Below are positions 2,990 to 25,885 of a DNA stretch of 25,898 nucleotides, in pieces. This DNA is from an uncultured bacterium (lineage in GTDB: Bacteria > Auribacterota > Erginobacteria > Erginobacterales > Erginobacteraceae). Below the pieces are notes generated by a model. The model did not search any database, was not told the origin of the DNA, and was given only the letters and a program-made list of their open reading frames with translations. The stretch covers positions 1 to 25,898 of the forward strand of contig CAKZYZ010000434.1 in the NCBI GenBank assembly GCA_937885075.1, in the 5' to 3' direction. The translations under genes and the position numbers were made by a program. Numbering within the stretch: the stretch's first letter is position 1; the number at the start of each line of letters is the position of its first letter.

Positions 2990-3016
2990 TTTAATTGGCT
3001 CTCCTCGGTGGGGTTT

Positions 3017-3059
3017 TTATCCGACGGATCGGTCGGATCCGACCGATCCGACTGATTAA
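3017..3059. repeat. Repeat family C: GGATCC-centred REP-like palindrome
   Basis: ttatccgacggatcggtcggatcc|gaccgatccgactgattaa; imperfect at the outer end; immediately 3' of the acyltransferase gene (minus). Confidence 0.85.
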
Positions 3060-3097
3060 AAAAAACCGCCCCCCTCCATATTCACCGCCCTGGCCTG

Positions 3098-3856
3098 CTA
3101 TTCCCTGCTGTCCCCTGCCATGCCCTCCTCCTCCCTGCTCCGCACCACCCGCGCGGGAACTCCTACGGCTATCGCGTACTCCTCGATATCCTGGAGGACT
3201 ACCGCGCCGGCACCGATCACCGCTCCCTTCCCGATCGTAACTCCACCCCGGATAACGGCATGGGTCCCGATCCAGACATCTTCCCCGATCACTATCCGGC
3301 TGGGGGACCTCCCCTGGAACCGCATCGGTCGGGTCAGATCATCAAAGGTATGATCACCGCCGATAATCTCCACCTGGTTAGCGATCAGAGTATTATCCCC
3401 GATCTCTATATCTCCATAGCCATAGATAAATGAACCGGAGCCTAAGTTGATCTTCTCCCCGATCGTCACTTTCCCGAGTTGAGTCCGTATGGTCACCAAC
3501 CGGGCGATATGACTATCCGAACCTATGGTTATTCCCTCCGCCGATGCTCCGACATCAAAGAGACTTCCCTCCCCTAAAAAGACCCGGTCACCGAGGATAA
3601 GACTCTTTGGGTTATAGAAGCGAATATTCTTCTCCAGCAGGCATCTCCTTCCCAGGTCACCCAGTATCAACCGATAGATATAACCACGCAATACGGTTCC
3701 GGCGATGGTGGGAAAACAGGAGAAGAGAGTCAGCAGCAGTCCCTGCCCGAAAAACCGGCCCAGAGACCCGCTCCCATAAACTTTCTCCCGATAATGGCGA
3801 AAACCTTCCGAAAAACCACCGGCCGGGATCGTCCCTTCTCCGTCATAACCAGTCAT
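3098..3856 (-). CDS. Hexapeptide-repeat (left-handed beta-helix) acyl/acetyltransferase, WcaF/sugar O-acetyltransferase-like
   Basis: 252 aa; repeated [LIV]G-x4 hexapeptides (IGEDVWIGTHAVIRGGVTIGKGAVIGAGAVV); N-terminal hydrophobic segment; GAGGG RBS. Confidence 0.8.
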   Translation of the reverse strand: MTGYDGEGTIPAGGFSEGFRHYREKVYGSGSLGRFFGQGLLLTLFSCFPTIAGTVLRGYIYRLILGDLGRRCLLEKNIRFYNPKSLILGDRVFLGEGSLFDVGASAEGITIGSDSHIARLVTIRTQLGKVTIGEKINLGSGSFIYGYGDIEIGDNTLIANQVEIIGGDHTFDDLTRPMRFQGRSPSRIVIGEDVWIGTHAVIRGGVTIGKGAVIGAGAVVLQDIEEYAIAVGVPARVVRSREEEGMAGDSRE

Positions 3857-3881
3857 AAGAACTTATCCCTCTCTTTGTTCT

Positions 3882-3990
3882 GGCAACTTTGCCTCTAAGG
3901 AAAGCATGAAATCAGGAGAATTTAAAGTAATCCTCCTCCTGCCTTCCTGCTTTCCTTAGAGGTTATTGAAATTCCGAAGCAGTAAATTCA
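3882..3990. repeat. Repeat family B copy (imperfect hairpin cctctaaggaaagcaggaaatcaggag/ctcctcctgccttcctgctttccttagagg + tail ttattgaaattccgaagcagtaaatt)
   Basis: Shared about 100-bp element also at 12887-12995 and 21862-21992. Confidence 0.85.
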
Positions 3991-4943
3991 TCTTTGTGGT
4001 CTGCTTTTAATCTACAGGTTATCGCGACACAGATTAATTCCGCGACGACAGACCATATCCTGATAAAAACCGCAAAAATAGTACCATACCCGACCGGAAT
4101 CGAAAAGAGCGATTCTAAAAGAACCACGATAGAGAGTTCCGCTATCCCCAGACCGGCGGGCGTAAGAGGACTTATCGTTCCCAGTATCCATGATACCGCC
4201 ATTATCCCGGAGAATAACAGCCAGGAATATGCCGGAAGAGGGTGGGCCGCGAAGATATCACCGGGCAGAATAGTCAGAAGAAGATAGGTTGCCGCCCCTT
4301 TAATCAGCCAGAGACCGCACCAGTAGAGTACCAGCAGGAGGATGGAAGAGTAGCGGAGATTTACTCTCATCTCGATATGCTCAACCTTGCGGAGGAACCA
4401 GTTGAGAACCGGTTGAAAGATCCGGGGATGGAGCAGGGCCAACCCGATCGGGACCAGGGCTACCAGCAGAATGACCAGCCGGGAATCTCCGGCCACTTCC
4501 AGGCTGGGCCAGAGCGGCAATGTAGCAAGAGCGACCAATACCCCCGAGACCGCCAGGATTATCAGCATCGCGCCGACACTGGCGAGAGTTATCAACCGCG
4601 GCACCCCCTTCTTCTCCAGCATCACCACCCGACCGACCGCGGTCCAGATCTTGCCGGGGATATACTTGGCCAGTTCGCTCAGATAATATACCCGGAGAAT
4701 CTCCCCGTGTGAGACCACCTGCCCCAGGGCCCTCAGGATAAATCCCCACCCCAGGGCTACCAGGAGTCCTCCCCCCACCGTCATAATCATCGATAGAGCC
4801 AGGAGCCAGCGGTTGGCCTGAAGAAGACTCCGGGAAAATGCCTGCCAGTCAAGATCGATCAGGTTAAGAACCAGGAAATATCCGATCGCCCCCAGAATAA
4901 CAACCTGAACTATCCTGAAAATATAATGTTTGGTTATCTTCAT
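3963..4943 (-). CDS. Flippase-like / UPF0104 (lysylphosphatidylglycerol-synthase TM region-type) polytopic membrane protein
   Basis: 326 aa, about 8 predicted TM helices; N-terminus typical of this family; no SD; last 10 codons (KDEFTASEFQ) plus TAA are encoded by repeat B1 tail. Confidence 0.6.
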   Translation of the reverse strand: MKITKHYIFRIVQVVILGAIGYFLVLNLIDLDWQAFSRSLLQANRWLLALSMIMTVGGGLLVALGWGFILRALGQVVSHGEILRVYYLSELAKYIPGKIWTAVGRVVMLEKKGVPRLITLASVGAMLIILAVSGVLVALATLPLWPSLEVAGDSRLVILLVALVPIGLALLHPRIFQPVLNWFLRKVEHIEMRVNLRYSSILLLVLYWCGLWLIKGAATYLLLTILPGDIFAAHPLPAYSWLLFSGIMAVSWILGTISPLTPAGLGIAELSIVVLLESLFSIPVGYGTIFAVFIRIWSVVAELICVAITCRLKADHKDEFTASEFQ

Positions 4944-4952
4944 TAAAAAATA

Positions 4953-5064
4953 GCCACAAAGGAGCTAAGACACTAAGGAAAATAAGATACGTAGTTATTG
5001 CACCTATAATTCTTTTCTTTGTGTCTTCGTGTCTTTGTGGCAAAAAAACTGCGAAACTAAGTTC
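4953..5064. repeat. Repeat family A copy
   Basis: gccacaaaggagctaagacactaagg...ttctttgtgtcttcgtgtctttgtggc + aaaaaaactgcgaaactaagttc; about 90% identical to 1677-1800. Confidence 0.85.
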
Positions 5065-5147
5065 TTTTAACGTTCTTCTGCTTCAACGTCACTATTTTTC
5101 AACGTCAGTTATTTTAACGTTATAATTTAGCGCCAAGACGCTAAAGT
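5065..5147. repeat. Repeat family D: three to four ~16-bp-periodic TTTTCAACGTC direct repeats + E-type hairpin
   Basis: cttcaacgtcac tatttttcaacgtcag ttattttaacgtt ... aatttagcgccaagacgctaaagt; same arrangement at 18003-18091. Confidence 0.8.
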
Positions 5148-6826: not shown

Positions 6827-6850
6827 AAAATTAGCTCATTGCGCCGGGAA

Positions 6851-6898
6851 ATTATTATCCGACGGATCAGTCGGATCCGACTGATCCGTCGGATAATA
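6851..6898. repeat. Repeat family C: perfect 48-bp palindrome
   Basis: ttattatccgacggatcagtcggatcc|gactgatccgtcggataataa; 3' of the flotillin gene (minus). Confidence 0.9.
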
Positions 6899-6921
6899 AC
6901 TTCCCGAAAAAAGAGCCTGCG

Positions 6922-8379
6922 TTATTCTTCTTCCCCGGCAGCCTCGGACTCGGGCGGGGCCGGTTCGGGAGGAACCGGACCGGGAGAAGTTTTCCCATCC
7001 CCTTCCAACAACCGCGGCACCAGTTTGGTCAGATCCACTCCGGTCATCGCCTTCATCTGTTCCATGAAAGTCACCAGCGACTTCGGTGCGGCCGTCATCA
7101 AGCGGGAGACCGAACTCTCACTATCACCGGATCCGCCGTCGATGGCGATAACCTTGTCGAACTTAATATTACCGAGTGCGTCCGCCCCGGCTGCGGCCAC
7201 CACCTTGAGCGCTTCCAGGGCCAGGTTGAGCTTGGCCGCCTCTCCGTACATATCCCAGGCCCGGGCTTTCTGTTTTAGACCTTCAGCCTGCGCCTCGAGT
7301 ACCAGCTGAATCCCTTTCGCTTCAGCTTCCTTCTTCTTTAAAACGGCTGTCGCCTCTCCCTCCGCCTTCAAGATCGCGGCTAACTTCGCGGCTTGGGCCG
7401 GAACAACCATCTCCGCCTTATATTTCTGTTCTTCAGCACCGGCCCGGGCCTGTTCGGCCAGTTTCCGGGCCTGCTGATCGCGCTCTTTCACCCTCTGCTG
7501 CTCCACCACCACTGCCTGAAGAGCCTTGGCCTCGGCCAGGGGTCCCTGCTGATCGGCCCGTTTGTTGGCCGAAAGTGTCTCCCCGCGATAATTTTCCTGG
7601 GCCACATCCCGATCTTTCTGGGCTTCAGCGATCTGGCGCTCCTGCTCGGCCTTGACCACCTCCCCTTCCCGCCGGGCGGTCTCAGACTCTTTCATGGCGT
7701 CCCGTTCCGCCTGGGCCTTACCGATGGCGGCGTCCTTCTTTACCTCCGAGGTCCTCTTGACCCCAAGTGCCTCCAGGTATCCCCGCTCATCCCGGATATC
7801 CTGGATATTGATAATATCAATGATGACGCCGATCTTGGCCAGCTCTTCTCCGGACTGATCCAGGACCTTATCGACGAACATCTGCCTCTCCTGGTAGAGC
7901 TGCTCGACGGTCAGGACCCCGATAATATCACGGAGCTGACCCTCCAGTGTCTCCTTGATAATCTGTTTGATCTCCTGGGTTGAAGAACTGAGAAAACGTT
8001 CCACCGCCCGACCCAGCATCCCTTCATCACTGGAGATCTTAACATTAGCAACAGCTTCGATCGTCACCGGCACGCCTTCCTTGGAGTAGGCTTTCTCGAC
8101 CCGGACATCCTTCAGGTTGATCAGCTCAAGCGAGATACGGCTGATCTTCTCGAGGATAGGGATCTTCAGCGCTGCCCCTCCGACTATGGCTCGCCAGCCC
8201 CGCACTATCTGTTTCGTATTGCCATCCTGATCTATAACCGTAGTCCGGTACTTCCGACCGGTGAAGATCAAGGCCTCATTCGGCTCCGCCTTCCGGTAGT
8301 TACTGACAAATAAGATAAATACCGCCAGAATCCCGGCCAACGCCGCTATCACAATCAAAGGTACAATTATAACTCCCAT
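6922..8379 (-). CDS. Flotillin / SPFH (band 7) domain protein
   Basis: 485 aa; N-terminal TM; SPFH core; long Ala/Glu/Lys coiled-coil 'EA-repeat' region; Pro-rich acidic C-terminal tail; GGGAGG RBS. Confidence 0.85.
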   Translation of the reverse strand: MGVIIVPLIVIAALAGILAVFILFVSNYRKAEPNEALIFTGRKYRTTVIDQDGNTKQIVRGWRAIVGGAALKIPILEKISRISLELINLKDVRVEKAYSKEGVPVTIEAVANVKISSDEGMLGRAVERFLSSSTQEIKQIIKETLEGQLRDIIGVLTVEQLYQERQMFVDKVLDQSGEELAKIGVIIDIINIQDIRDERGYLEALGVKRTSEVKKDAAIGKAQAERDAMKESETARREGEVVKAEQERQIAEAQKDRDVAQENYRGETLSANKRADQQGPLAEAKALQAVVVEQQRVKERDQQARKLAEQARAGAEEQKYKAEMVVPAQAAKLAAILKAEGEATAVLKKKEAEAKGIQLVLEAQAEGLKQKARAWDMYGEAAKLNLALEALKVVAAAGADALGNIKFDKVIAIDGGSGDSESSVSRLMTAAPKSLVTFMEQMKAMTGVDLTKLVPRLLEGDGKTSPGPVPPEPAPPESEAAGEEE

Positions 8380-8395
8380 CTCTCGCCTCCCTTTT

Positions 8396-8432
8396 AAATT
8401 AGCTCCCTTCGGTCGCTAATTTAGTTTTAAAC
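8396..8432. repeat. Family E hairpin (aaattagc-loop-gctaattt) + conserved 'agttttaaac', 5' of flotillin RBS
   Basis: aaattagctcccttcggtcgctaattt agttttaaac; on the minus strand it lies 4 nt before GGGAGG. Confidence 0.75.
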
Positions 8433-8554
8433 AATGAATTACATTTATTTTTTTCTACTATGCCGGTTAAATGCCAATCACTATTTTCAAGATCAGAAAA
8501 TCCTGGCATCGGGTGGCCATGGAATGCTACTCCCTACTGCCCACTCCCCACTAT

Positions 8555-9109
8555 CTACTCTATTTTCGCCAACCCCGAAAAAACAGTGGTAATCGTTACC
8601 TCTTCTCCGGCCCGGAACTCCCTCTCGGGATCCACTGCCCGTGCTCTTAGATAGACGGTACTGCCGGTCCGGGGATCTTCGGATTTCACCTCCCCCGTCC
8701 CCCCCTTGAGGAGCGCGGAAGTTACCAACGCCTTCTTCCCCACCACCGACGTGCTGCTGGTCAGAGTATTGGCCTGCTGCTTATAGAGCAACTTGAGGAG
8801 TTGATAAACTATCGCGTAAACAATCACTCCGCCAATCAATCCTGATAAAATATGCGGAATCGGCCAGTGGAGACGGTAGGCCAGAAATCCCGCCAGTCCA
8901 AAGCCAATGATAAAACTGAATATCAATTTTATCCCGAGAAATCCCGGCCCACCGGCTTCGGAGATATCTCCCGCCTCCATCCCCCCCTCAACTTCAATAT
9001 CACCACCCCCCAGATCTCCCCCATCATCCCCGATCCCGAAGATAACCATAACCACCAGAAGCAGCGCCGGCAGAACAACCATCATCCCATAGATCCATTC
9101 AATTCCCAT
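8555..9109 (-). CDS. NfeD-like membrane protein (flotillin partner, YqiJ/YuaF-like)
   Basis: 184 aa; two TM segments separated by Gly/Asp-rich stretch; C-terminal OB-fold-like segment; AAGGAGGG RBS; directly upstream of the flotillin gene. Confidence 0.75.
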   Translation of the reverse strand: MGIEWIYGMMVVLPALLLVVMVIFGIGDDGGDLGGGDIEVEGGMEAGDISEAGGPGFLGIKLIFSFIIGFGLAGFLAYRLHWPIPHILSGLIGGVIVYAIVYQLLKLLYKQQANTLTSSTSVVGKKALVTSALLKGGTGEVKSEDPRTGSTVYLRARAVDPEREFRAGEEVTITTVFSGLAKIE

Positions 9110-10986: not shown

Positions 10987-11056
10987 TCAGTCCTGCCCAA
11001 CGAAGGCAGGACTGAAGTCCTGTACTACGAGCTTATTGAAATTCCGAAACAGTAAA
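10987..11056. repeat. Family B-related element: 27-bp-stem perfect-ish hairpin + B tail (cttattgaaattccgaaacagtaaatt)
   Basis: ctcgtagtgcaggacttcagtcctgcc caacgaa ggcaggactgaagtcctgtactacgag (1 mismatch), then the B-family tail. Confidence 0.75.
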
Positions 11057-11083
11057 TTAGCGAACGAAGTGAGCTAATTTATT
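11057..11083. repeat. Family E hairpin overlapping the PPC gene stop
   Basis: aaattagcgaacgaagtgagctaattt. Confidence 0.65.
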
Positions 11084-11498
11084 GCCAGAGCGAAAGCCCG
11101 GTAGTCTCGTCATAACCCCGTTTAAGAGATTCGCCTTTAAACTCGGCAATCCGGCATTCGGCGGCAAAGATGATCGTCCCGGCACAGAGATGCCCTCCCA
11201 TGACCCGCCCTTCACGGTCCGCCAGGGTAACATGAGCGTGGACAAATATCTCCCCATCTTTCAGCGAGATATTCCCCAGACAGGAAGTAATCTCCATCGG
11301 TTCCTCAATGTCCTGCTCCCGGTACTCCCGGGCACTCTGGTCGTAATATCCGATCCGGGCTCTTTGAACCGCTCCGATTGCCATAATCGTACCGGTAGAG
11401 ATTTTCTCTCTTCGGGCCAGATCGGTAATCGCCTCCAGCAGGTCCGAATTGTGGGGAAGCCCGGTTAGTATTATCTTTCCTGTTTCATATTCTGTCAT
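11079..11498 (-). CDS. PPC (DUF296) domain protein, putative DNA-binding
   Basis: 139 aa; PPC/DUF296-like sequence as recalled; AAGGAG RBS 9 nt upstream; stop formed at edge of an E-type hairpin. Confidence 0.65.
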   Translation of the reverse strand: MTEYETGKIILTGLPHNSDLLEAITDLARREKISTGTIMAIGAVQRARIGYYDQSAREYREQDIEEPMEITSCLGNISLKDGEIFVHAHVTLADREGRVMGGHLCAGTIIFAAECRIAEFKGESLKRGYDETTGLSLWQ

Positions 11499-11740: not shown

Positions 11741-12880
11741 AACTTCCCTTCCTCCCCTCCCCCCTCCCCACGGCTCGAACGATTCACCTTTTAAGGCCGC
11801 CACAATCCGGGATGCGGCTTTCCCATCCCCGTAAGGATTTTGAGCCCGGGCCATCCGGTCATATTCCTCAGCATCATAGAGGAGCTTATCGAGACCAGCT
11901 TCTATCCTCCCGCGATGCGGTCCGACCAGCAGACAGGTCCCGGCCTCAACTCCCTCCGGACGCTCGGTTAGATCCCGGAGTACCAGAACCGGCTTGCCCA
12001 GAGCCGGTCCCTCTTCCTGGACACCGCCGGAATCGGAGAGAAGAAGCTTCGCGCCTTTCATGGCATGGCTGAAGGCGATATAATCCAGCGGTCCGCTCAG
12101 AACAATATTAGGTTTCCCCGCTAAGATCTCATGAGCAGGCTGAGAGACCTCAGGATTGGGATGGACCGGGTACCAGAGATATATCTCCCGATGGAGGGAA
12201 AGATAATCCCGGACTGTCTCAAATACCTCCCGGATCGGCCTACCGAATATCTCCCGCCGGTGACAGGTCATCAGGACATACGGTTGATCTGCAGGAACCG
12301 GGACAGGAGGCGGATCAGTCCGATTAAGAATATCAAAGAGCGAGTCAATTACGGTATTACCGGTTATAAAGACTGCCCCGCGGGATACCCCTTCCCGGAG
12401 GAGATTTTCGGCGGCGCTTTTGGTCGGAGCAAAGTTGTATTCAGCGGCCAATCCCGCGATCTTCCGATTAAACTCTTCCGGAAACGGAGCGGAGAGGTCT
12501 CCGGTCCGCAGGCCGGCCTCAATATGACCAAAAGAAACCTGGTTGTGAAAACAAGCGATAGATACCGCCATCACCGTGGTGGTATCGCCCTGGGCCAGTA
12601 CAATATCAACCGGATTGTCAGTAAGATATTCATTCACCCCGATCAGTACCCTCCCGGCCAGGGTATTTAAGCTCTGCCCGGGTCGCATCAAATCAAGATC
12701 AACATCAGGGACGATAGAGAAGACCTCCAGTATCTGGTCGAGCATATCCCGGTGCTGGGCCGTCGCCAGAACCCGGACCCGGAAAGTATCGGCCTCAGCC
12801 CGCAGAGCGGCGATAACCGGAGCGACCTTAATCGCTTCCGGGCGGGTCCCTACTACGCAGAGTATATCCTTAATTGTCAT
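11729..12880 (-). CDS. wecB: UDP-N-acetylglucosamine 2-epimerase (non-hydrolysing)
   Basis: VVGTRPEAIKVAP N-terminal motif and overall WecB/MnaA layout. Table start 12886 is GTG; the ATG at 12880 gives the typical N-terminus. About 20 extra C-terminal residues (GGGRGGR...) are encoded by a C-rich tract that runs into repeat F. Confidence 0.88.
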   Translation of the reverse strand: MTIKDILCVVGTRPEAIKVAPVIAALRAEADTFRVRVLATAQHRDMLDQILEVFSIVPDVDLDLMRPGQSLNTLAGRVLIGVNEYLTDNPVDIVLAQGDTTTVMAVSIACFHNQVSFGHIEAGLRTGDLSAPFPEEFNRKIAGLAAEYNFAPTKSAAENLLREGVSRGAVFITGNTVIDSLFDILNRTDPPPVPVPADQPYVLMTCHRREIFGRPIREVFETVRDYLSLHREIYLWYPVHPNPEVSQPAHEILAGKPNIVLSGPLDYIAFSHAMKGAKLLLSDSGGVQEEGPALGKPVLVLRDLTERPEGVEAGTCLLVGPHRGRIEAGLDKLLYDAEEYDRMARAQNPYGDGKAASRIVAALKGESFEPWGGGRGGREVISA

Positions 12881-12886
12881 TAGCAC

Positions 12887-12995
12887 ATAGCCCTCGCCTT
12901 ACTCGGGCAACTTTCCCTCTGAGGAAAGCAGGAAATCAGGAGAATTTAAAATACTCTCTCCTCCTGCCTTCCTGCTTTCCTTAGGTGTTATTGTC
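12887..12995. repeat. Repeat family B copy (with 'tagccctcg...cgggcaacttt' head; tail diverged)
   Basis: Alignment to 21862-21992 and 3882-3990; the head contributes the putative wecB RBS. Confidence 0.8.
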
Positions 12996-13041: not shown

Positions 13042-13078
13042 AAATTCCGGAATAGGAACTTGCACCTTCTATTCAGGT

Positions 13079-13131
13079 GTCGTTATCGGACGGATCGGTC
13101 GGATCCGACCGATCCGTCCGATAACAATAAC
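13079..13131. repeat. Repeat family C: perfect 44-bp palindrome with imperfect extension
   Basis: gttatcggacggatcggtcggatcc|gaccgatccgtccgataac; 3' of the amidohydrolase gene (minus). Confidence 0.9.
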
Positions 13132-13155
13132 GCCCCGCCTTGTTAACCGCGCGTC

Positions 13156-13197
13156 GCTTGCCGCTTACTGCTTACCGCTTACCGCTTACTGCTTACC
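13156..13197. repeat. 7-bp tandem microsatellite (GCTTACY) x6
   Basis: gcttgcc gcttact gcttacc gcttacc gcttact gcttacc; immediately 3' of the amidohydrolase stop. Confidence 0.85.
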
Positions 13198-13204
13198 GAT
13201 CACC

Positions 13205-14683
13205 CTACTCCTGCCTGGCGCCTGTCGCCTTAATCTCCTGATGGCTCTCCCGGTACTCGGTTAGAAGTTCGGAGAGTTTCATAATATCACCCTTGATCTT
13301 CTCCTCGTCCAGGGTGACAAACCGATAATCATCCTTCAGTATATTTCCGTTGGCGATAACCCAGCGGACTTCACTCCCGTCGGAGGCCCAGATCAGGTTC
13401 TCCACCACATTATCGATCCGGGTCGGGGTAAGGTTCGGCCGGCGGAGGTCGATCAGAATCAGGTCGGCGTCCTTACCCGCCGAGAGTGAACCGGCATTAA
13501 GCCGAAGCATCTTTGCCGGAACCACCGTCACCATCTCCAGAACCTGCTGTGCGGGGAGGGCGTGAGCATCCTTATGGAAAGCTTTCTGATATTGGGATGC
13601 CATCCTGGCCGCGCCTAACATATTCTGACTGTCAGCGGAGCCGGAACCATCGGTGGAGATGGCGACCGGGATCCCCAACTCCAGCATCTCCATCACCGGC
13701 GGCATACCAGATCCGAGTATGGTGTTGGCCAGGGGGTTATGCACTATGCTGGTTCCGGTCTCTTTCAGGACCACCAAGTCAACATCGGTGTTATTTACCT
13801 GGTGAGCCAGAATAGTATTCTCATCCAGCGCGCCGGCCTGATTCAGATATTCGACCGGACTGCAAAGATACTGGGAGTAGAACCAGGCCGTCGTGCCTGG
13901 CTCCTCAGAGCTGTGCATATGAAAGAGCGTGCCGTGGGCATTCGCCCAATCTTTGAGCACCTTGATCATCTCAGCGCTGTTGGAGAAGACCTGATCCGGC
14001 CCCGGAAGGATCCAGGTCCGTTCCCGATCCCCGAACTCGGCGGTATAGTCATCCAGCCTTTTCACCGCTTCTTCAGGAGTATCCAGGATACGGGGATCGT
14101 AGTTCCGGTCCTGTCCGCCGACAGCAATCATGATCTTGGTCCCGGCTTCCGCGTTCGCCTCCACCAGTTCCGCCACGTGGTACTTATTAAAATTACAGTG
14201 GTGGGTCAGGGCGGAGGTGATCCCATAATAGATGTCATCCAGCTTGGCCTTGGTATAGGTGATCAGGTTGGCGGAGACCCCGAACTCAGCGGTCAGTTCA
14301 TCCTTATTCTCATTCAAAAACCCGGTGAAGACATTGACCGCGTGGTCGAGCCAGTCGGTCAGGGGTTCGTCCTTGGCGATCCCGATTATCGGAGACTCAT
14401 GATCGTGTCCGTGCGCCTTGATAAATCCGGGGAGTACCACCCCATCCAGGCAGGGGATATCTCCCTCGACCAAGCCTCCTTCTTTCTCCAGACCGATAAC
14501 CTGGAGATCGTCTCCGCATTCCCGGATAATTCTCTCCCCGATCCCGGATTCATACTTCCCGACTTCCTTGATCAGACTCCCCTCGGTCAGAACATACCCA
14601 TCCTCAATCCGGGTCGAAAGACCCAACTTCTCATCCATCGGTAACAGCAGACGGCTCCGGACAAGTTTAAACTTCTTTTTCAT
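13205..14683 (-). CDS. Amidohydrolase-superfamily metal-dependent hydrolase (chlorohydrolase/deaminase-like)
   Basis: 492 aa; HxH-type motif (AHGHDHE) and overall amidohydrolase layout; GGAG RBS; hairpin E directly 5' of RBS. Confidence 0.7.
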   Translation of the reverse strand: MKKKFKLVRSRLLLPMDEKLGLSTRIEDGYVLTEGSLIKEVGKYESGIGERIIRECGDDLQVIGLEKEGGLVEGDIPCLDGVVLPGFIKAHGHDHESPIIGIAKDEPLTDWLDHAVNVFTGFLNENKDELTAEFGVSANLITYTKAKLDDIYYGITSALTHHCNFNKYHVAELVEANAEAGTKIMIAVGGQDRNYDPRILDTPEEAVKRLDDYTAEFGDRERTWILPGPDQVFSNSAEMIKVLKDWANAHGTLFHMHSSEEPGTTAWFYSQYLCSPVEYLNQAGALDENTILAHQVNNTDVDLVVLKETGTSIVHNPLANTILGSGMPPVMEMLELGIPVAISTDGSGSADSQNMLGAARMASQYQKAFHKDAHALPAQQVLEMVTVVPAKMLRLNAGSLSAGKDADLILIDLRRPNLTPTRIDNVVENLIWASDGSEVRWVIANGNILKDDYRFVTLDEEKIKGDIMKLSELLTEYRESHQEIKATGARQE

Positions 14684-14696
14684 ATTTTCTCCTTAT

Positions 14697-14730
14697 AAAT
14701 CAGCGGGTTCTAGCTGATTTAGTTTTGAAC
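14697..14730. repeat. Family E hairpin with compensatory stem change + 'agttttgaac', 5' of amidohydrolase RBS
   Basis: aaatCagcgggttctagctGatttagttttgaac; the T->C / A->G change preserves pairing relative to copy 8396. Confidence 0.75.
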
Positions 14731-14897
14731 CAAGTCCAACATAATTATGTCAGAACAGTGCCAATAGTTATTTTAATAATTCCGGCGATACTTTTATTCG
14801 CCTTATGACCGCAAAAACAATGCTACATAAATACCTTAATATATTCAATAGTTTGTTGCCGCTTTCTTCGGGCAAACGGATAAATCGAAAAAATTTA

Positions 14898-14926: not shown

Positions 14927-15044
14927 ATTTTTAACATACTCATACCGTATAGAGCCTTCAGATTACGGAAGAGGAGATCAGGTAACGAAATTTATCATAG
15001 CTATCAGGGATCTATACCTTCCCTGAACTAAAATGGAGAAAAAT

Positions 15045-16115
15045 ATGAAGAAAGCTGTTTTCGCCGTCGCCGGCGCCGTCTTCTTGCTTCTATCGGGAAC
15101 CGTCCTTTTGGCCGATAACTTTTCCGGGAGTGATGATTTCAATGATAATAATATTAATCTAAGTAAGTGGGATGATACCATGGGAGGCTTTGGTGATTTA
15201 ACCGAGGCAAATCAGCTCTTGGAACTGGATCTTGACGGGGGCGGCTCCTCCCCGCAGGGGCATCTTCCCTGGAAATTAAACTACGGATCATATACCCAGG
15301 ATTGGGAAGTATATTATGATATTAATGTCCCAACCTTCACTCAATTTTCCGGAGATGAAGCCTCCTCGATGAGCATATTTATCTATGCCCTGCCGATGGG
15401 AACCGGTGGCTATATCGGTATGACCCTGGGACAGGAAACCGGCAGCAGCCCCTCCCGGAAATTTATGGCGAACATGTCCACCCTCTCTGATACTACTGAA
15501 GCTGAAATCATGACCACATCCACCGAATCTTCCGTGAGAATTCACTGGGACGCCTCCAGCACCACGCTTTATTGTGACTATGATTCCGATGGGGGGAGTG
15601 ACAGCTGGACCAATCTGAAGTCCTGGAACATCGCCCCCGGCCAACCATATTCCTGGAATATGACAACTGGAAGCACTTTTATTTGCTTTTTGATCGGGCA
15701 AGCGGAAATAACTCATGGGGGGGAGACTAACCCCTCCGGAGATAATTTTGTAGCCAACAGCACACCGCCGACCGCGCCTCTGGCGATTTTCCGGCCCGGC
15801 AGCGGGCTCTGGGCCCTCCGGAACATTACCCGGGCTTACTTCGGCGGGTCCAGTGATATCCCGGTTTACTCCGACTATGACGGCGACGGGACCAAGGATA
15901 TCGCGATCTTCCGGGGTTCTACCGGGCTCTGGGCGCTCCGGGGGATAACCCGGGCCTACTTCGGGGGCGGCTCCGATGAACCCATACCGGGCGATTACAA
16001 CGATGACGGCAGCGCCGATATCGCGATCTTCCGGGAATCCACCGGACTCTGGGCGGTCCGCGGACTGACCCGGGGTTACTTCGGCGCCACCGGAGATATT
16101 CCTCTGGAGCCATAA
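15045..16115 (+). CDS. Secreted protein: degenerate concanavalin-like/GH16-like N-terminal domain plus 3 FG-GAP/VCBS-type repeats
   Basis: Signal peptide MKKAVFAVAGAVFLLLSGTVLLA; 'DDFNDNNINLSKW' and 'ELDLDG' resemble the GH16/ConA-like fold but lack ExDxxE; three about 40-aa tandem repeats (DYDGDGxxDIAIFRxSTGLWA-R). Table start 15033; ATG at 15045 has GGAG at -6. Confidence 0.7.
   Translation: MKKAVFAVAGAVFLLLSGTVLLADNFSGSDDFNDNNINLSKWDDTMGGFGDLTEANQLLELDLDGGGSSPQGHLPWKLNYGSYTQDWEVYYDINVPTFTQFSGDEASSMSIFIYALPMGTGGYIGMTLGQETGSSPSRKFMANMSTLSDTTEAEIMTTSTESSVRIHWDASSTTLYCDYDSDGGSDSWTNLKSWNIAPGQPYSWNMTTGSTFICFLIGQAEITHGGETNPSGDNFVANSTPPTAPLAIFRPGSGLWALRNITRAYFGGSSDIPVYSDYDGDGTKDIAIFRGSTGLWALRGITRAYFGGGSDEPIPGDYNDDGSADIAIFRESTGLWAVRGLTRGYFGATGDIPLEP
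15757..16112 (+). repeat. Intragenic ~120-nt coding tandem repeat x3 (FG-GAP modules)
   Basis: ctctgggc(g/c)ctccgg...acccgggc(c/t)tacttcgg...gatatcgcgatcttccgg recurs three times. Confidence 0.8.
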
Positions 16116-17983: not shown

Positions 17984-18091
17984 TTCGAGTAAGATCAAGC
18001 AATATTTTTTTAACGTCTTTTTTCTTCAACATCCTTATTTTTCAACGTCGGTTATCTTTAACGTTTAAATTAGTGCCGGAGGTGCTAATTT
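17984..18091. repeat. Repeat family D copy (with A-like 'ttcgagtaagatcaagc' head)
   Basis: ttttttaacgtc ttttttcttcaacatcc ttatttttcaacgtcgg ttatctttaacgtt + aaattagtgccggaggtgctaattt. Confidence 0.8.
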
Positions 18092-18092
18092 A

Positions 18093-18983
18093 TCAGGAAG
18101 ACCTCTCATACGGCACACCCAGCGCGGCGGGCCCGCCAATTCGTTTTCTCAGTTTTTCATTTGACATCACCAGCGTAACAATTAATACCGTGGCCAGATA
18201 AGGGATCATCATCAGGAGATAGGGCGAGGTAAAGATACTGGAGATAACCGGAATATCCATTCCCTGCAATTTGAACTGAAGAATCCAGAGACCGCCGAAT
18301 AATTCAGCGCCGATCAATACCATAGCGGGCCTCCACATCGAAAAGAAGGCCAGGGCGATACAGATCCATCCCCGTCCGGCGGTCATTCCTTCCCGCCACA
18401 TCGGTGAATAGGCCAGAGATAGATAGGCCCCGGCCAGACCAGCCATCATGCCGCCGATAAAGACGCAGATATAACGAACGCGGGCGACATTGATTCCGGC
18501 CGTGTCGGCGGCTTCAGGATCCTCTCCCACCGCCCGGACAATCAGACCGAAACGAGTTCGATAGATGACAAACCAGGTCAGAGGAACCAGCGCCAGTCCC
18601 AGGAAAAGCAAGGGAGTTATGCCGGACACTATGGTCGGCACCCGCGGGGGAGCTCCCACCATCAGAAAATGTTTTCCCACATAGGCGGTTAAACCCAGGC
18701 CGAATATCGTGAGAGCCATCCCGCTGACTACCTGGGATTGTCGGAGCGTTATAACAATAAACCCATGAATCAAGCTCATCAAGCCCCCGGCGATCATGGC
18801 CGCGGCCAGGCCGATCCAGGGACTACCGCTCAGAGTAGCCGCGGCAAATCCGGTTAAAGAACCAACCACCATCATTCCTTCCAATCCCAAATTCAGTACC
18901 CCGGAACGCTGACTCAAAACTTCGCCCATCGTACCGAAGATGAAGAGGGTGGCGGCCTGCATAATTAAAATAATCGTATCCAT
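18093..18983 (-). CDS. ABC transporter permease (BMP/nucleoside type, YufQ/NupC-like)
   Basis: 296 aa polytopic; ATG overlaps upstream stop (TAATG), indicating coupling. Confidence 0.85.
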   Translation of the reverse strand: MDTIILIMQAATLFIFGTMGEVLSQRSGVLNLGLEGMMVVGSLTGFAAATLSGSPWIGLAAAMIAGGLMSLIHGFIVITLRQSQVVSGMALTIFGLGLTAYVGKHFLMVGAPPRVPTIVSGITPLLFLGLALVPLTWFVIYRTRFGLIVRAVGEDPEAADTAGINVARVRYICVFIGGMMAGLAGAYLSLAYSPMWREGMTAGRGWICIALAFFSMWRPAMVLIGAELFGGLWILQFKLQGMDIPVISSIFTSPYLLMMIPYLATVLIVTLVMSNEKLRKRIGGPAALGVPYERSS

Positions 18984-20059: not shown

Positions 20060-21612
20060 AATTTAACTCCAGCCATCCAGGCCCCCAAATTATCTTTTAC
20101 CGCCTCCGCCGCCGGAACCATTCCGGTGATCCTTCCTTCATAGAAAACCGCGATCCGGTCACTGACCGACATTATCTCATCCAGATCTTCGGAGATCAGG
20201 AGGATGGCGCATTTCTCCAGCTTGAGAGCAAGCAACTGATTTTGAATAAACTCCGCCGCTCCAACATCCAGACCGTGAGTCGGCAGGTTGGTGATCAGCA
20301 ACCGGGGGTGGTGGGAAATTTCCCGGGCCAGAATAAGTTTCTGGAGGTTGCCGCCCGAGAGATGGATGGCCGGGGTTTCCTTGCTCGGGGTCCGAATATT
20401 ATACCGGGGGATCATTTCTTCCGCGAAGCGTTCGACCGCTTTATGATCGAGACCCCAGCGGCGGGAAAATGGTTTTTCGAAATATTTATCCAGCACCAGA
20501 TTATCGGCCACGGAAAAATCAGGAACCACACCTATCATATACTCTTCCGGAATATGACCGATACCTTTCTCTATTCTCCGGCGGGTAGATAGGCCGGTGA
20601 TATCTTCCCCGGAGAAAATAATCTCTCCCGATAATACCCCGCGCAACCCGGCGATAACCTCGGCCAACTCCGATTGACCGTTTCCCGCCACCCCGGCAAT
20701 CCCCAGGATCTCACTCTCCCGGATGGTCAGGGAGATGCCCTTTAAAGCCATAATCCCCTTGTCATTTAGGGCCCGCAGATTTTTTATCTCCAGGACCGGA
20801 TCACCGGGAGCTATTTCCGGTTTTTTTAGTTGGAAGAGCACACTCTTCCCCACCATCTTCCGGGCCAGATCCCGGGGATTGGTCTGGTCGGTCCTGATCT
20901 CCTCCACCACTCTCCCCCGCCGGAGAACCGTCACCCGATTGCTGGTGGCTATTACCTCCGGAAGTTTATGAGTAATGAAAGGAACCACAGCCATCTCCTG
21001 GGTCGCCATCCGACGGAGCAGAAGCGAGAGCTGCTCCGCTTCGGCCGGGGTAAGGATTGAGGTTGGTTCATCCAGCACTAAAATCTGAGCGTTCCGATAG
21101 AGCATCTTCAGAATCTCAACCCGCTGTTTCTCCCCGGCGGAAAGCTGCCAGATGCGCGCGGAGGGATCGACCTGAAGGGAATATTTCTCGGAAAGCTTTT
21201 CTATCCTTTCCACCACCCTCTTCATTCTTCCGATGATCCCCCCTTCCCTGAGGCCCAGGATAATGTTTTCCGCTACGGTCAGGGAAGGCACCAGCTTGAA
21301 GCGCTGATGAACCATCCCGATTCCCAGCGCGATCGCGTCGAGGGGCGATCTGATGACGACTTTCTTTCCCCTCAGATAGATTTCTCCCTCATCGGGCTGG
21401 TATAAGCCGTAGATAATATTCATCAGGGTGGTCTTTCCGGCCCCGTTTTCACCGAGCAGAGCATGGACCTCACCGGCTTTGACGTCGAAGTTGATATGAT
21501 CATTGGCCAGGACACCCGGGAAACGCTTGGTGATATTCCTTAACTCCAGGACCATATCTCCCGGCTTACAGCCTTGCCGAAAATCGATATCGATTGTCTT
21601 TTCTTCCCTCAT
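20056..21612 (-). CDS. ABC transporter ATP-binding protein with two fused NBDs (nucleoside/sugar type)
   Basis: Two Walker A (GENGAGKTT, GVAGNGQSE), two signature motifs (LSAGEKQR, LSGGNLQK). Start uncertain: 21612 (no SD, hairpin abuts) or 21555 (MVLELRNITKRF, typical N-terminus). Confidence 0.9.
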   Translation of the reverse strand: MREEKTIDIDFRQGCKPGDMVLELRNITKRFPGVLANDHINFDVKAGEVHALLGENGAGKTTLMNIIYGLYQPDEGEIYLRGKKVVIRSPLDAIALGIGMVHQRFKLVPSLTVAENIILGLREGGIIGRMKRVVERIEKLSEKYSLQVDPSARIWQLSAGEKQRVEILKMLYRNAQILVLDEPTSILTPAEAEQLSLLLRRMATQEMAVVPFITHKLPEVIATSNRVTVLRRGRVVEEIRTDQTNPRDLARKMVGKSVLFQLKKPEIAPGDPVLEIKNLRALNDKGIMALKGISLTIRESEILGIAGVAGNGQSELAEVIAGLRGVLSGEIIFSGEDITGLSTRRRIEKGIGHIPEEYMIGVVPDFSVADNLVLDKYFEKPFSRRWGLDHKAVERFAEEMIPRYNIRTPSKETPAIHLSGGNLQKLILAREISHHPRLLITNLPTHGLDVGAAEFIQNQLLALKLEKCAILLISEDLDEIMSVSDRIAVFYEGRITGMVPAAEAVKDNLGAWMAGVKL

Positions 21613-21615
21613 TAC

Positions 21616-21660
21616 AAATTAGTGCCGGCGGCGCTAATTCAGTGGAAATGCACTAAAATT
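21616..21660. repeat. Two adjacent E-type near-palindromes abutting the ABC ATPase ATG
   Basis: aaattagtgccggcggcgctaatt and tgcactaaaattagcacc. Confidence 0.6.
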
Positions 21661-21861
21661 AGCACCTCTATATTTTTGTATTATATATTATTATCTTGAT
21701 TTTTTCAACAATACTTACAATCGCGAGAAAATCAATGCCTATATATATTTTATTTTACAATATACTTTTATCGCCATTTTACAAATATTTTGCTCGCGGT
21801 GATAATCTCTGAATCTAACCCTTGCGGGAGTGGGCCACATCTGCTATTCCATAATAGAACT

Positions 21862-21992
21862 TAGCCCTCGGCTTTGCCTCGGGCAACTTTTCCTCTAAGG
21901 AGAGCAGGAAATCAGGAAAATTAAAATACTCCCTCCTCCTGCCTTCCTGCTTTCCTTAGGGGTTATTGAAATTCCGAAGCAGGAAATTAGTT
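21862..21992. repeat. Repeat family B copy (head + hairpin + tail)
   Basis: tagccctcggctttgcctcgggcaacttttcctctaaggagagcaggaaatcagg...ttccttaggggttattgaaattccgaagcaggaaatt. Confidence 0.85.
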
Positions 21993-22191: not shown

Positions 22192-22248
22192 ACTGGAGTA
22201 CTGGAGTGATGGGGGCGCCTTCCCAACACTCCAATACTCCAATATTCC
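22192..22248. promoter_or_regulatory. Imperfect inverted repeat with internal 8-mer duplications (ctggagtactggagtg ... cactccaatactccaatattccag), candidate operator
   Basis: Abuts the putative -35; in the divergent region between the nucleoside-transporter operon and the deaminase gene. Confidence 0.4.
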
Positions 22249-22254
22249 AGAACA

Positions 22255-22283
22255 GTTGCCCGGAGCAAAGCGACGGGCTATGT
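22255..22283 (+). promoter_or_regulatory. Candidate promoter of the cytosine-deaminase-like gene
   Basis: TTGCCC-N17-TATGTT directly upstream of the GGAG RBS. Confidence 0.35.
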
Positions 22284-23532: not shown

Positions 23533-23561
23533 TAAAACAACGGATTAATTTGTTGTTTTAT
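23533..23561. terminator. AT-rich hairpin (ataaaacaac ... gttgttttat) between the convergent deaminase and FAD-oxidoreductase genes
   Basis: 10-bp stem; stop codons of both genes flank it. Confidence 0.4.
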
Positions 23562-24691
23562 TAGAGGATCTTCTCCACCAGGTTCTTCACGTACCTCCCG
23601 ATCGCCGGGGCGGCGGTCAGGCCGGGGGACTCGATGCCGATCAGGTTTATCAGTCCCGGCAGGCCCCGGTCTTCTTCGTGATGGATAACGAAGTCCCGCT
23701 CCGCCTCTCCCTTCCGGTAGAGCTTGGGGCGGATCCCGGCCATATCAGGGGAGAGATTATCTCTCTGCAATTCCGGAAGATACTTTTCCGCGCCGCGGAA
23801 GAAATCCTCCCGATGCTGTTCGTCCACGGTATAGTCGACCTCATCCACATAGAAAGCGCTCGGACCGATCTTCATCCCGCCCTGAAGATCCACCACCGTG
23901 TGGAGGCCCAGACTGATCTCGGTCGGGGGGGGATAAACCAGATTGCTGAATAAGGCCCCCTCCGTCCCCCCGACCCGGAAGTACTCGCCCTTGCAGGGAT
24001 AGATCCTGTAACCGGCGGCGGCGGTATCGATCCCGGCCATTATCGCCACTCTCTCCGCCCCCAATCCGGCCGCGTTCACGACTACCCGGCTGAAAAACTC
24101 ATACTCCTCCCCGTCGGCATCACGGATCACTACCCGATAACCTTCCCCCTTCTTTTTGAGGGCGATAAGTTCACAGTTATACGCGAATGTCGTATCGCAG
24201 GAGGCCTTCTTCTCCAGGTAGGCCATCAGGCGATGGCTGTCGATAATACCGGTCCCGGAGGACCAGAGGCCCCCTTCCGCCCGCACCCGGGGCTCAATCG
24301 CCCGCACCTCGCCGCGGGAAAGAAGACGAAGCCCCTCAACTCCGTTCTCTTCCGCCCGCTCCTTCAGCGCCGCGATAACCGGGAGATCTCCCTTCTCGAT
24401 AGCGATGATAAGCTTACCGCATTTACGGAACGGAATATCCACCCGGGGACAGAGTTCGTAAAGAATCCGGCGCCCTTCGGTACAGAGCCGGGTCTTATGA
24501 AAATCCCTTGAGTAATAGATCCCGGCGTGGATCACCTCGCTGTTCCGGCTACTCGACTCCCGGCCGAACCCGTCATGCCGTTCCACCGCGATAATCTCCC
24601 TCCCCCCCCCGCTCAGCTCCGCCGCGACCGCCAGCCCCACCACCCCCACCCCAATAATAGCAACATCAACCTTTTCCAATTTATTCTCCAT
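23561..24691 (-). CDS. FAD-dependent oxidoreductase (L-2-hydroxyglutarate oxidase/LhgO-like)
   Basis: N-terminal dinucleotide-binding GxGxxG (VAIIGVGVVGLAVA); 376 aa; no SD. Confidence 0.7.
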   Translation of the reverse strand: MENKLEKVDVAIIGVGVVGLAVAAELSGGGREIIAVERHDGFGRESSSRNSEVIHAGIYYSRDFHKTRLCTEGRRILYELCPRVDIPFRKCGKLIIAIEKGDLPVIAALKERAEENGVEGLRLLSRGEVRAIEPRVRAEGGLWSSGTGIIDSHRLMAYLEKKASCDTTFAYNCELIALKKKGEGYRVVIRDADGEEYEFFSRVVVNAAGLGAERVAIMAGIDTAAAGYRIYPCKGEYFRVGGTEGALFSNLVYPPPTEISLGLHTVVDLQGGMKIGPSAFYVDEVDYTVDEQHREDFFRGAEKYLPELQRDNLSPDMAGIRPKLYRKGEAERDFVIHHEEDRGLPGLINLIGIESPGLTAAPAIGRYVKNLVEKIL

Positions 24692-24696
24692 TTTTA

Positions 24697-24829
24697 GGGG
24701 TCAAGTCTACTTATTGCTTAACTTTATATTTAAATTCTTCCCTGATCGGGTATATTTATAGGGGTCAAGTCTACTCATTGTTTAACTTTATATTTGAATT
24801 CCTTCCCTGATCGGGTATATATTTATCGT
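24697..24829. repeat. Two tandem ~64-bp direct repeats between the FAD-oxidoreductase and RayT-like genes
   Basis: ggggtcaagtctacttattgcttaactttatatttaaattcttccctgatcgggtatatttata (24697-24760), then a second copy (24761-~24829) with 4 substitutions and small indels. Confidence 0.85.
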
Positions 24830-24878: not shown

Positions 24879-25808
24879 ATGTCTCGACCCCTGAGAATTC
24901 AGTACCCCGGTGCCTGGTACCATATAATGAACCGTGGCGGCCATCATCGAAATATTTTCAGCAATGAGAATGATCGACTGGAATTTTTACGATTGCTAAA
25001 GGAAACGATTGAGATGTGGGAGATAGAGGTGCATGCTTATTCATTGCTGGATACGCATTATCATCTTCTAATCCATACACCCCTGGGCAACCTTTCCCGG
25101 GCAATGAGGCATATCGGCGGAGTTTATACTCAACGTTATAACATTCGTCATGATACTGATGGTCAACTATTTCGGGGAAGATATAAATCAATCCTGGTAG
25201 ATAAAGATAATTATCTGCTGGAAGTAGTGAGATATATTCACCTGCAAGGAGTTCGGGCAGGGATAATAAGTCAGCCTGAAGATGATATCTGGTCATCTTA
25301 TCGGGCATATTTATTCCAGCAGGATAGCTTGACCTGGTTAAGCACCGGGAAAATACTCAGTATTTTTAACAGGAACCGCTCGGCCGCAAGAAAACGACTG
25401 ATTGAATTTATCAGCAATGGTATCTCTCCCGGTATCAAAGAATTCTATTCCAAAGAAAGGCTATCTCCAGTGTTGGGTTCTAAAGAGTTTATTAAAAATA
25501 TCAAGGATACTTACATAATTCCGGAAGCGCCTTTCTATGAAATCCCGGATAGTAAAGTCAAAAATGGCCACAGCACAATAACTATGATAAATAAAATAGT
25601 CTGTGAGCAATATCTCATCTCACAAAAATCCTTGCTGGAAGTATCCAGGGGAATTCACAATGAACCACGGGATATCGCGGTATATTTAGCCCGGCAAGAG
25701 GGGAAATATTCTTTGAATGAAATTGCTGATAGTTACGGTTTCTCAAGTTATTCCGGAGTTAATTCAACCATCAGGAGAATTAAACATCGCTTAAAAACAG
25801 ACAAGAAC
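24879..25808 (+). CDS. RayT-like (COG1943) HUH Y1 tyrosine transposase fused to DnaA-C-like HTH; 3'-truncated by adapter at contig end
   Basis: N-terminus 'RPLRIQYPGAWYHIMNRG' and HUH motif 'THYHLLIHTP' typical of IS200-like/REP-associated Y1 transposases. C-terminal 'IAVYLARQEGKYSLNEIADSYGFSSYSGV' resembles the DnaA C-terminal HTH. AAGGAG RBS. ORF continues into adapter-derived sequence (25809 onward), so the true end is unknown. Confidence 0.7.
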
Positions 25809-25885
25809 AGATCGGAAGAGCGTCGTGTAGGGAAAGAGTGTAGATCTCGGTGGTCGCCGGAGCATTAAAAAAAAAAAAGAAAAAA
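25809..25885. other. Sequencing artefact: Illumina TruSeq universal adapter (reverse complement) followed by poly-A
   Basis: 25809-25859 = AGATCGGAAGAGCGTCGTGTAGGGAAAGAGTGTAGATCTCGGTGGTCGCCG, a 51/51 match to the revcomp of the TruSeq universal adapter. Then 'gagcatt' (adapter has TATCATT), then A12 G A6. Confidence 0.93.

Follow-up and report, generated by a model that had tools for sequence, protein, structure and literature searches.

Two hairpins of similar sequence stand directly upstream of two unrelated genes in the DNA analyzed here, a contig of 25,898 nucleotides (nt) from an uncultured bacterium (the window). Pfam assigns the two downstream genes to Band_7 (flotillin-like) and Amidohydro_1. 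The question posed by this locus is whether such hairpins regulate the translation of the genes that they precede, as the initial annotation suggested, or are copies of an element with a more general relationship to gene boundaries. Here, we describe the hairpins, their relatives, and the explanations that may account for them.

Hairpins in the window and their leaders

On the minus strand, the flotillin leader reads gtttaaaact-AAATTAGC-gaccgaaggga-GCTAATTT-aaaa-GGGAGG-cgagag-ATG (start, 8379), and the amidohydrolase leader reads gttcaaaact-AAATCAGC-tagaaccc-GCTGATTT-ataa-GGAG-aaaat-ATG (start, 14683). Both hairpins (copies 1 and 2) are therefore real, as the initial annotation had it, and so are its layout of copy 1, the compensated T:A-to-C:G pair that distinguishes the copies, and their shared flank, GTTYAAAACT. 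For copy 2, two details of it need correction: the loop is 8 nt and not 10 nt (a "gc" had been written twice), and the spacer between the Shine-Dalgarno (SD) sequence and the ATG is 5 nt and not 8 nt. The functional SD lies 4 nt outside the stem in both copies.

The stem of copy 1 comprises eight A/U-rich pairs followed by G-C, C-G, tandem G.A/A.G, and two C-G pairs. Its leader RNA folds at -15.6 kcal/mol (z = -3.05) and its covariance-model score is 55.9 bits; the corresponding values for copy 2 are -10.5 kcal/mol (z = -1.95) and 49.8 bits. The pattern AAATYAGC-N6-14-GCTRATTT occurs three times in the window, compared with no occurrence in 100 dinucleotide shuffles. The third of these hairpins (copy 3), read on the minus strand, overlaps with its first bases the TAA stop of a PCC-domain gene (11079-11498), a terminator-side use, and its flanking module is partly deleted. 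In all, the 26-kb window holds five hairpins of this type (Table 1), among them the "E-type" hairpin described initially as abutting the ATG of an ABC ATPase gene that lacks an SD, a description that our coordinates confirm. Simple scans for sigma-70 promoters and for terminators flagged neither copy 1 nor copy 2.

Table 1. Features of the hairpin-bearing module in the window
Feature	Position	Strand	Basis or remark
Hairpin copy 1, AAATTAGCGACC-GAA-GGGAGCTAATTT	8396..8422	-	Sequence, pattern scan, fold, covariance model
Copy 1, conserved 22-nt leader/flank ATGTAATTCATTGTTTAAAACT	8423..8444	-	Family information profile and alignments
Copy 1, distal AT-rich promoter-like part, degenerate	8445..8491	-	Weakly conserved across the family
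SD GGGAGG, 6-nt spacer, and ATG of Band_7/flotillin gene	8377..8391	-	SD begins 4 nt past hairpin
Hairpin copy 2, AAATCAGC-tagaaccc-GCTGATTT	14697..14720	-	Upper stem decayed; C:G at stem position 5
Copy 2, conserved 22-nt leader/flank ATGTTGGACTTGGTTCAAAACT	14721..14742	-	Family information profile
Copy 2, distal promoter-like part, TTAAAA ... cTGaCATAAT	14743..14786	-	Within segment missing from L058
SD AAGGAG, 5-nt spacer, and ATG of amidohydrolase gene	14681..14694	-	Sequence
Hairpin copy 3, GAA loop on + strand	11054..11080	+	Overlaps stop of PCC-domain gene
Variant hairpin AAATTAGTGCC-GGA-GGTGCTAATTT	18067..18091	+	Directly past stop of ABC permease gene 18093-18983(-)
Variant "E-type" hairpin GAATTAGCGCC-GCC-GGCACTAATTT	21616..21640	-	3 nt ahead of ABC ATPase ATG at 21612; no SD

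A multi-copy module that ends in a hairpin

A scan of metagenomes for the flank plus hairpin returned at least 120 matching loci, and seven GTDB metagenome-assembled genome (MAG) matches were found. From the matches listed, removal of near-duplicates left a family set of 62 non-redundant flank-bearing copies, a biased sample in that the scan pattern fixed most stem bases. A covariance model trained on 41 copies and applied to about 600 kb of related loci found additional copies outside the reach of the text pattern. Judged by contig accession series, most of the metagenome contigs come from a few lake sample sets, which biases the sample further; an origin in Ace Lake is documented only for the Auribacterota MAGs, L174, and L020. 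The window itself is a contig from a marine metagenome. The GTDB carriers are "PVC group bacterium" MAGs, one unclassified MAG, and Candidatus Euphemobacter frigidus, which a taxonomy look-up places in Candidatus Auribacterota; each has one to four exact-pattern copies. A protein encoded in the window shares 85% identity with one from the PVC-group MAG. We infer that the family's host is a PVC-group lineage including Candidatus Auribacterota, and not Omnitrophota; in this lineage the module is multi-copy.

None of the Rfam 15 covariance models matched the window at its gathering score. A sub-threshold match to RF02980 (freshwater-2) at 14681-14754(-), with 23.8 bits (gathering score, 49.9) and E = 0.14 in a search of 401 nt, did not recur in 12 other family loci and probably arose by chance. 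The 15 matches to the flank and 5' arm in a scan of viral contigs included none with the hairpin and are chance matches. We found no description of the element in the literature searched, and the published description of the Ace Lake Auribacterota MAGs does not mention it. The element is non-random and is new relative to Rfam and to that literature. Its general kind (dispersed palindromic repeat or mobile promoter) is known, and its tight register to translation starts is unusual. An unrelated conserved element, AAATGAGCTAAAGCTCATTTAGTTTTCGCTTACGCTCAAACT, was matched by the same scan pattern on low-GC (0.34-0.39) metagenome contigs (L057, L063, L068, L076, L077, L089, L112, L127, L139, L144, and L156).

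An information profile of the 62 copies, anchored on the hairpin, is high in the stem and from -22 to -1 (ATGnTnGTCnTnGTTCAAAACT), moderate from about -60 to -23, and zero past -62 and past +2. These drops delimit a unit of about 90 nt that ends exactly at the hairpin. The conserved 5' flank noted initially is therefore real and belongs to this longer conserved module, not to a bare REP. Within it, the conserved 22-nt leader ends in a nearly invariant TTCAAAACT, and the hairpin is 23 to 27 nt long with a C(GNA)G-type loop. High identity is limited to the leader and the stems; the distal part, -62 to -23, is weakly conserved and AT-rich; its TTGAAA-like box occupies -56 to -51 and its TAnAAT box occupies -29 to -24. 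A gap of 21 nt separates the best -35-like and -10-like boxes, and 20% of copies have a TG ahead of the -10 box. This composition suggests a promoter-like part and is suggestive only. The 21-nt spacing departs from canonical sigma-70 geometry, the sigma-70 scan did not flag the module, and sigma-54, ECF, and Bacteroidetes-type promoter readings did not fit by eye.

A possible 7-codon mini-ORF, ATG-N18-TAA (MxVLVQN*), spans -22 to +2 of the module, so that its stop overlaps the beginning of the hairpin. Window copy 2 (14719-14742, minus strand) is among the 28 of 60 copies in which it is intact, and in copy 1 it is broken. As a leaderless ORF, it is regarded here as coincidental; its ATG follows the -10-like box and precedes the predicted start site.

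Double substitutions preserve the pairing of the stem. Among 68 distinct sequences, standard pairs occupy 91% of cells, compared with no more than 48% after the 3' partner is shifted, and changes on both sides are seen in 8 of 11 pairs (21 cells); these copies are related by descent, and none of 500 shuffles reached any of five covariation measures. Comparison of orthologs agrees, giving the same answer without family-wide statistics. One stem position is occupied by A-T, T-A, and G-C in the flotillin leaders of the window, L174, and L190, whose proteins are 91 to 93% identical, and the L174 ortholog of copy 3, which lies in a full reversed module, has C-G where the window has A-T. The initial suggestion of constraint beyond neutral decay is thus borne out both by the family and by three compensated base pairs at a single position. 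Selection need not be the cause of the compensatory changes, which template switching or conversion between copies could also produce. A DNA-uptake sequence or dimeric operator was set aside as well, as the spacing of the arms varies (3 to 11 nt or more) and stem bases change in pairs.

The module is also polar. On the TTCAAAACT strand, the central loop triplet is GNA in 43 of 63 cases and TNC in 1 of 63, with N variable, and one subfamily carries tandem G.A/A.G in its upper stem (GCGACC...GGGAGC), which is favorable on the module strand only. Both features point to a strand-specific single-strand structure, whether RNA or single-stranded DNA (ssDNA), and not to a symmetric duplex site. Counts of G.U and A.C mismatches on the module strand (14 and 11, respectively) reveal no strand bias and hence do not demonstrate selection acting on one RNA strand.

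The hairpin end of the module, not its distal end, is flush with gene boundaries. An ORF begins -3 to +30 nt past the hairpin in 34 of the 62 copies, compared with 5.5% of random positions and 3 of 58 copies on the mirror (distal) side, and the start distances run from 0 to 28 nt and cluster at 0 to 8 nt (17 copies) and 13 to 20 nt (16 copies). In reversed copies, the stop of a convergent ORF lies within 15 nt (10 of 62, compared with 2.2% of random positions and 1 of 58 on the mirror side), and the stop codon is often inside AAATTAGC. The median gap to a gene measures 17 nt from the hairpin end and 145 nt from the distal end; gaps of 20 nt or less number 34 of 60 and 3 of 51, respectively. 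About 27 secondary covariance-model hits, which had not been selected by pattern, include 10 that abut a start and 8 that abut a stop in a classification by hand. By our reading, a stop codon precedes seven of nine hairpins in the GTDB-MAG loci, and the U-rich tail given by the reverse complement of the flank is then on the coding strand. The initial observation stands, since the copies display both positional bias relative to start codons and covariation.

Three architectures occur at starts. In the first, found in both window copies, the hairpin is followed after 3 to 8 nt by an SD. In the second, confined to a subfamily, the ATG directly abuts the hairpin, and GGAG in the 3' arm lies about 7 nt upstream. 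In the third, the ATG follows the hairpin after 1 to 6 nt, with no SD. The downstream genes are unrelated, their N termini suggesting S4-like and L13-like ribosomal proteins, a response regulator, and a metallophosphoesterase, and one copy lies 20 nt ahead of a tRNA-Gln gene (L116). L104, L125, L078, and L116 contain promoter-like modules in divergent or tandem arrangement, and in L116 a canonical GC-stem/U7 terminator follows the tRNA-Gln gene.

Close relatives differ in whether they have the module, which is gained or lost as a unit. L058 is syntenic with the window from 13.2 to 19 kb (amidohydrolase, BMP-family binding protein, and permease are 93%, 87%, and 95% identical, respectively). 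There, the homologous amidohydrolase leader runs directly into AAGGAG-N5-ATG, with the module missing and the SD kept. The window has 92 nt extra (14695-14786) that end just before AAGGAG, and this indel has the same bounds as the module delimited by conservation across the family; this single junction bears no evident target duplication. Since the L058 ortholog does without the module, any benefit that the module confers is dispensable. At the 3' end of the permease gene, both loci have a hairpin on the stop with different adjoining modules, L058 carrying a full reversed module where the window has the variant at 18067-18091.

The flotillin locus varies similarly. No element is present in L171 (79% identical), and the L190 leader contains the E-type subtype with the same 5' flank as the hairpin at 21616-21640. 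Long retention is seen between L023 and its ortholog in L108 (66% amino acid identity, 47% at third codon positions), where -22 to -1 is 86% identical and the stems are identical. Taken together, these patterns of presence, absence, and retention indicate a discrete unit that is inserted, replaced, and sometimes long retained. Different hairpins also seem interchangeable at the end of the PCC gene (window and L174 compared with L190). After this gene, L190 has a long near-perfect inverted repeat at 2607-2683, TTTGGTGATTATAAAAGGTTTGCCACCAGATT...AATCTGATGGCAAACCTTTTATAATCACCAAA, which is unrelated to hairpin copy 3.

A gene of about 180 amino acids with no Pfam hit lies upstream of the flotillin gene (window 8555-9109 and 6922-8379, respectively) and is its partner in all relatives (L171, L174, and L190). 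In L171, 57 nt separate the two, which places the copy 1 module inside a probable ancestral two-gene operon.

Candidate functions and origins of the module

We consider, with moderate confidence, that the module is a copy-and-paste expression or boundary cassette with a terminal 5'-untranslated-region (5'-UTR) stem-loop, a probable promoter, and a terminator function when reversed, these functions being read from sequence and position. Each window hairpin would then be the terminal stem-loop of one strand-polar, dispersed, intergenic module of about 90 nt. There is no space for a promoter between hairpin and start, which implies that the hairpin is transcribed within the 5' UTR from a promoter upstream; copies in divergent intergenic regions (window copy 2, L023, and L104) lead to the same expectation. 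The predicted transcript 5' end lies about 10 to 17 nt upstream of the hairpin. The module probably supplies this promoter and, in one subfamily, would supply the SD too. Most likely, the hairpin serves as a generic 5' stem-loop that protects the mRNA end, keeps the A-rich SD and start region insulated and unstructured, or both. In reversed copies, the hairpin followed by UAAUUUAGUUUUGAAC would act as terminator of the abutting gene, and transcript 3' ends would fall in UAAUUUAGUUUU.

If the cassette explanation is correct, a single cassette acts as promoter, 5' leader, and terminator for many genes of an uncultured PVC-group lineage. Its sequence would help to identify true start codons and the limits of transcription units in these MAGs; it would also be an instance of natural promoter/UTR propagation in which expression is rewired by insertion flush to the ribosome-binding site (RBS), and a compact natural design of insulator hairpin plus RBS. 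Natural controls for presence and absence exist at the amidohydrolase gene (window and L058) and at the flotillin gene (L171 as against L174, L190, and the window).

The main rival, which we regard as unlikely, is a selfish ssDNA hairpin repeat with no host function, either REP/REPIN-RAYT-like or derived from IS200/IS605. The hairpin and 5' flank would be the substrate of a Y1 transposase, stem and loop would be kept for mobilization, and adjacency to genes would reflect targeting or tolerance. This accounts well for the polarity of the module, whose 5' flank is conserved and whose loop is GNA on one strand, for the lack of G.U strand bias, and for a unit that comes and goes between close relatives with no obvious target duplication. 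Subfamilies exist, tandem and back-to-back (REPIN-like) pairs occur in L092, L078, L116, and L125, and several further families of hairpin repeats make the window a mosaic. Reversed copies next to stops retain an apparently intact "promoter" that points into the gene, which a selfish repeat fits better than a designed cassette. It accounts poorly for the exact register to SD, ATG, and stop. The hairpin end, unlike the distal end, is flush with one of these in 44 of 62 copies, and the placement of a hairpin GGAG about 7 nt before the ATG across a whole subfamily would be unexpected from random tolerated insertion. The element is also kept at orthologous genes across saturated synonymous divergence, and the flotillin site swaps hairpin subtypes while always keeping a hairpin (window, L174, and L190).

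It is very unlikely that the hairpin is a translational operator or riboregulatory stem through which a protein, small RNA, or temperature occludes or exposes the RBS of co-regulated genes. The 22-nt single-stranded leader is conserved beyond what a promoter needs, the SD lies 3 to 8 nt past the stem or, in the ATG-abutting subfamily with tandem G.A pairs, inside the 3' arm, and several genes without an SD begin 1 to 6 nt past the stem, all of which would suit an operator. Occlusion of the RBS, as initially proposed, fits the position of the SD in that subfamily only; in the window copies, the SDs are outside the stem. The genes downstream share no function, one of them is a tRNA gene and is not translated, the same element sits reversed on stop codons, and L058 dispenses with it. 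For these reasons we reject the gene-specific operator of the initial annotation; the module is not an operator for the flotillin or amidohydrolase gene.

Most improbable of all is an intrinsic, possibly bidirectional, terminator or insulator by which the window copies would halt antisense or read-through transcription at the 5' edges of their genes. The reverse complement of the conserved flank does give a U-rich tail (UAAUUUAGUUUUGAAC), the GTDB-MAG hairpins that follow stops have this tail on the coding strand, and stop-adjacent (E-class) copies make up 16% of the family, whereas 2.2% of random positions are stop-adjacent. The U-rich tail is antisense to the neighboring gene in both window copies, where a pure terminator reading consequently fails, and in 55% of the family; a coding transcript cannot reach a start-proximal hairpin from the tail-strand side. 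Loop polarity tracks the module and not the mRNA to be terminated, canonical GC-stem/U7 terminators are present in the same genomes, and the simple terminator scan passed over the window copies. The view that all copies are intrinsic terminators was rejected as a general account, as most metagenome copies precede starts.

A bolder reading, which we think quite unlikely, is that the module is a lineage-wide RNA signal read by a dedicated factor or, equally, a new hairpin-ended mobile element that targets initiation regions and stops. As an RNA signal, the 22-nt leader and GNA hairpin could be read by an RNA-binding protein, a nuclease, or the ribosome and could mark or set up initiation regions, including SD-less starts 0 to 6 nt past the stem. 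If this is true, copy-and-paste would have spread a start-site determinant of a new general class.

Known systems and other repeats

REP, BIME, and REPIN elements of Proteobacteria are short imperfect palindromes whose conserved 5' flank is asymmetric; they are multi-copy and extragenic, occur in both orientations with occasional inverted doublets, and form mosaics with other repeats, and the module is like them in all of these respects. RAYT-mobilized REPs number in the hundreds per genome, lie mostly at 3' ends or between convergent genes, and typically flank the gene of their cognate RAYT, a Y1 transposase. Its palindrome is 23 to 27 nt long, within the 20 to 40 nt of REPs, and its flank, TTCAAAACT, is unrelated to the GTAG of REPs. 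Unlike REPs, its hairpin is set within a module of about 90 nt with a promoter-like part and lies mainly flush upstream of an SD or ATG and not at 3' ends. REPs can act as mRNA stabilizers or terminators.

Correia elements, which are miniature inverted-repeat transposable elements (MITEs) of Neisseria, are dispersed intergenic sequences of about 100 to 150 nt that can supply promoters, terminators, and RNA stem-loops; they are present or absent between close relatives, are bounded by terminal inverted repeats of 26 bp, and come with a duplicated TA target. The module resembles them in its intergenic dispersal and its presence or absence between close relatives. It differs in having one terminal hairpin and no terminal inverted repeats: the information profile reveals no inverted repeat at the left end, and there is no duplication at the copy 2 indel, the one junction with L058.

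Stable stem-loops that adjoin or contain the SD are found among 5'-UTR stabilizers (the ompA and aprE leaders) and thermometers (ROSE and fourU). The module hairpin, a presumed stable 5'-UTR stem-loop beside or including the SD, is comparable. Those are single-gene elements, whereas the module is one stereotyped sequence before dozens of unrelated genes, and its hairpin begins about 10 to 17 nt from the predicted 5' end, unlike 5'-terminal stabilizers. In window copies 1 and 2 the SD lies outside the hairpin; only the ATG-abutting subfamily, with GGAG in the 3' arm, pairs its SD in this way. Similarly, a stem followed by a coding-strand U-tract past a stop, as in an intrinsic terminator, is seen in copy 3, the 18067 variant, and 10 of 62 family members, and not in window copies 1 and 2. 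C(GNA)G loops such as d(GCGAAGC) are unusually stable in both DNA and RNA. The hairpin tops, GCGC-GAA-GCGC or GCC-GNA-GGC, resemble d(GCGAAGC), a structural likeness with no functional implication. An integron attC site, which has R''/L''-L'/R' boxes with the core GTTRRRY and comes with cassette arrays and an integrase, was rejected, as GTTCAAA/GTTTAAA does not fit this core and the neighbors are housekeeping genes and operons in conserved synteny.

Putative mobile promoters are homologous upstream regions of 50 to 100 nt before non-homologous genes, within and across genomes, and are defined by at least 80% upstream identity with no structural requirement (Matus-Garcia, Nijveen, and van Passel 2012; PMC3488235). 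The module is like them in lying upstream of non-homologous genes, although such identity is reached only by its 22-nt leader and stems. It is unlike them in its core of covarying hairpin and leader, its poorly conserved distal part, and its reversed copies at 3' ends.

Several other repeats share the window. A second hairpin family (ATCCGACGGATCGGTCGGATCCGACCGATCCGTCGGAT), a near-perfect palindrome of about 50 to 60 nt, is intergenic and near gene boundaries (3010-3073, 6848-6911, and 13076-13139), and one copy ends a few nucleotides before the GAGGAG-N11-ATG of the gene starting at 2989. A third module of about 110 to 130 nt with the hairpin CCTCTAAGGAAAGCAGGAA...TTCCTGCTTTCCTTAGAGG (3852-3988, 12876-12993, and 21855-21988) is partly joined to a segment, GAAATTCCGAAACAGT, that also flanks hairpin copy 3. 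A fourth, intergenic family has inverted repeats, GCCACAAAG(A/G)CACTAAGACAC, and short CACNAAG-like periodic units (126-178, 1668-1801, and 4934-5065). An ACGTT-spaced module (acgttaaa..gacgttgaaaaata..gttgaag..acgttaaaa) is found at 5062-5134 and 18005-18077, its second copy directly joined to the hairpin at 18067-18091.

Runs of G-rich heptamers (GGGAGTA/GGGCAGTA, GGTAAGC, and GGAGTAT) come right after stop codons (8526-8554, ~13155-13204, and ~22225-22260), and their position is conserved in orthologous loci (L174 3365-3395 and L190 3345-3370). Two tandem 64-nt repeats, 89% identical, occupy 24690-24806 in the divergent region between the genes at 23561-24691(-) and 24879-25868(+). Finally, the gene at 15033-16115 contains three 40-amino-acid tandem repeats at 15752-16084 (FG-GAP/VCBS-like, "DIAIFR..GLWA.R..TR.YFG"), and many paralogous repeat proteins are found in nearly all related loci.
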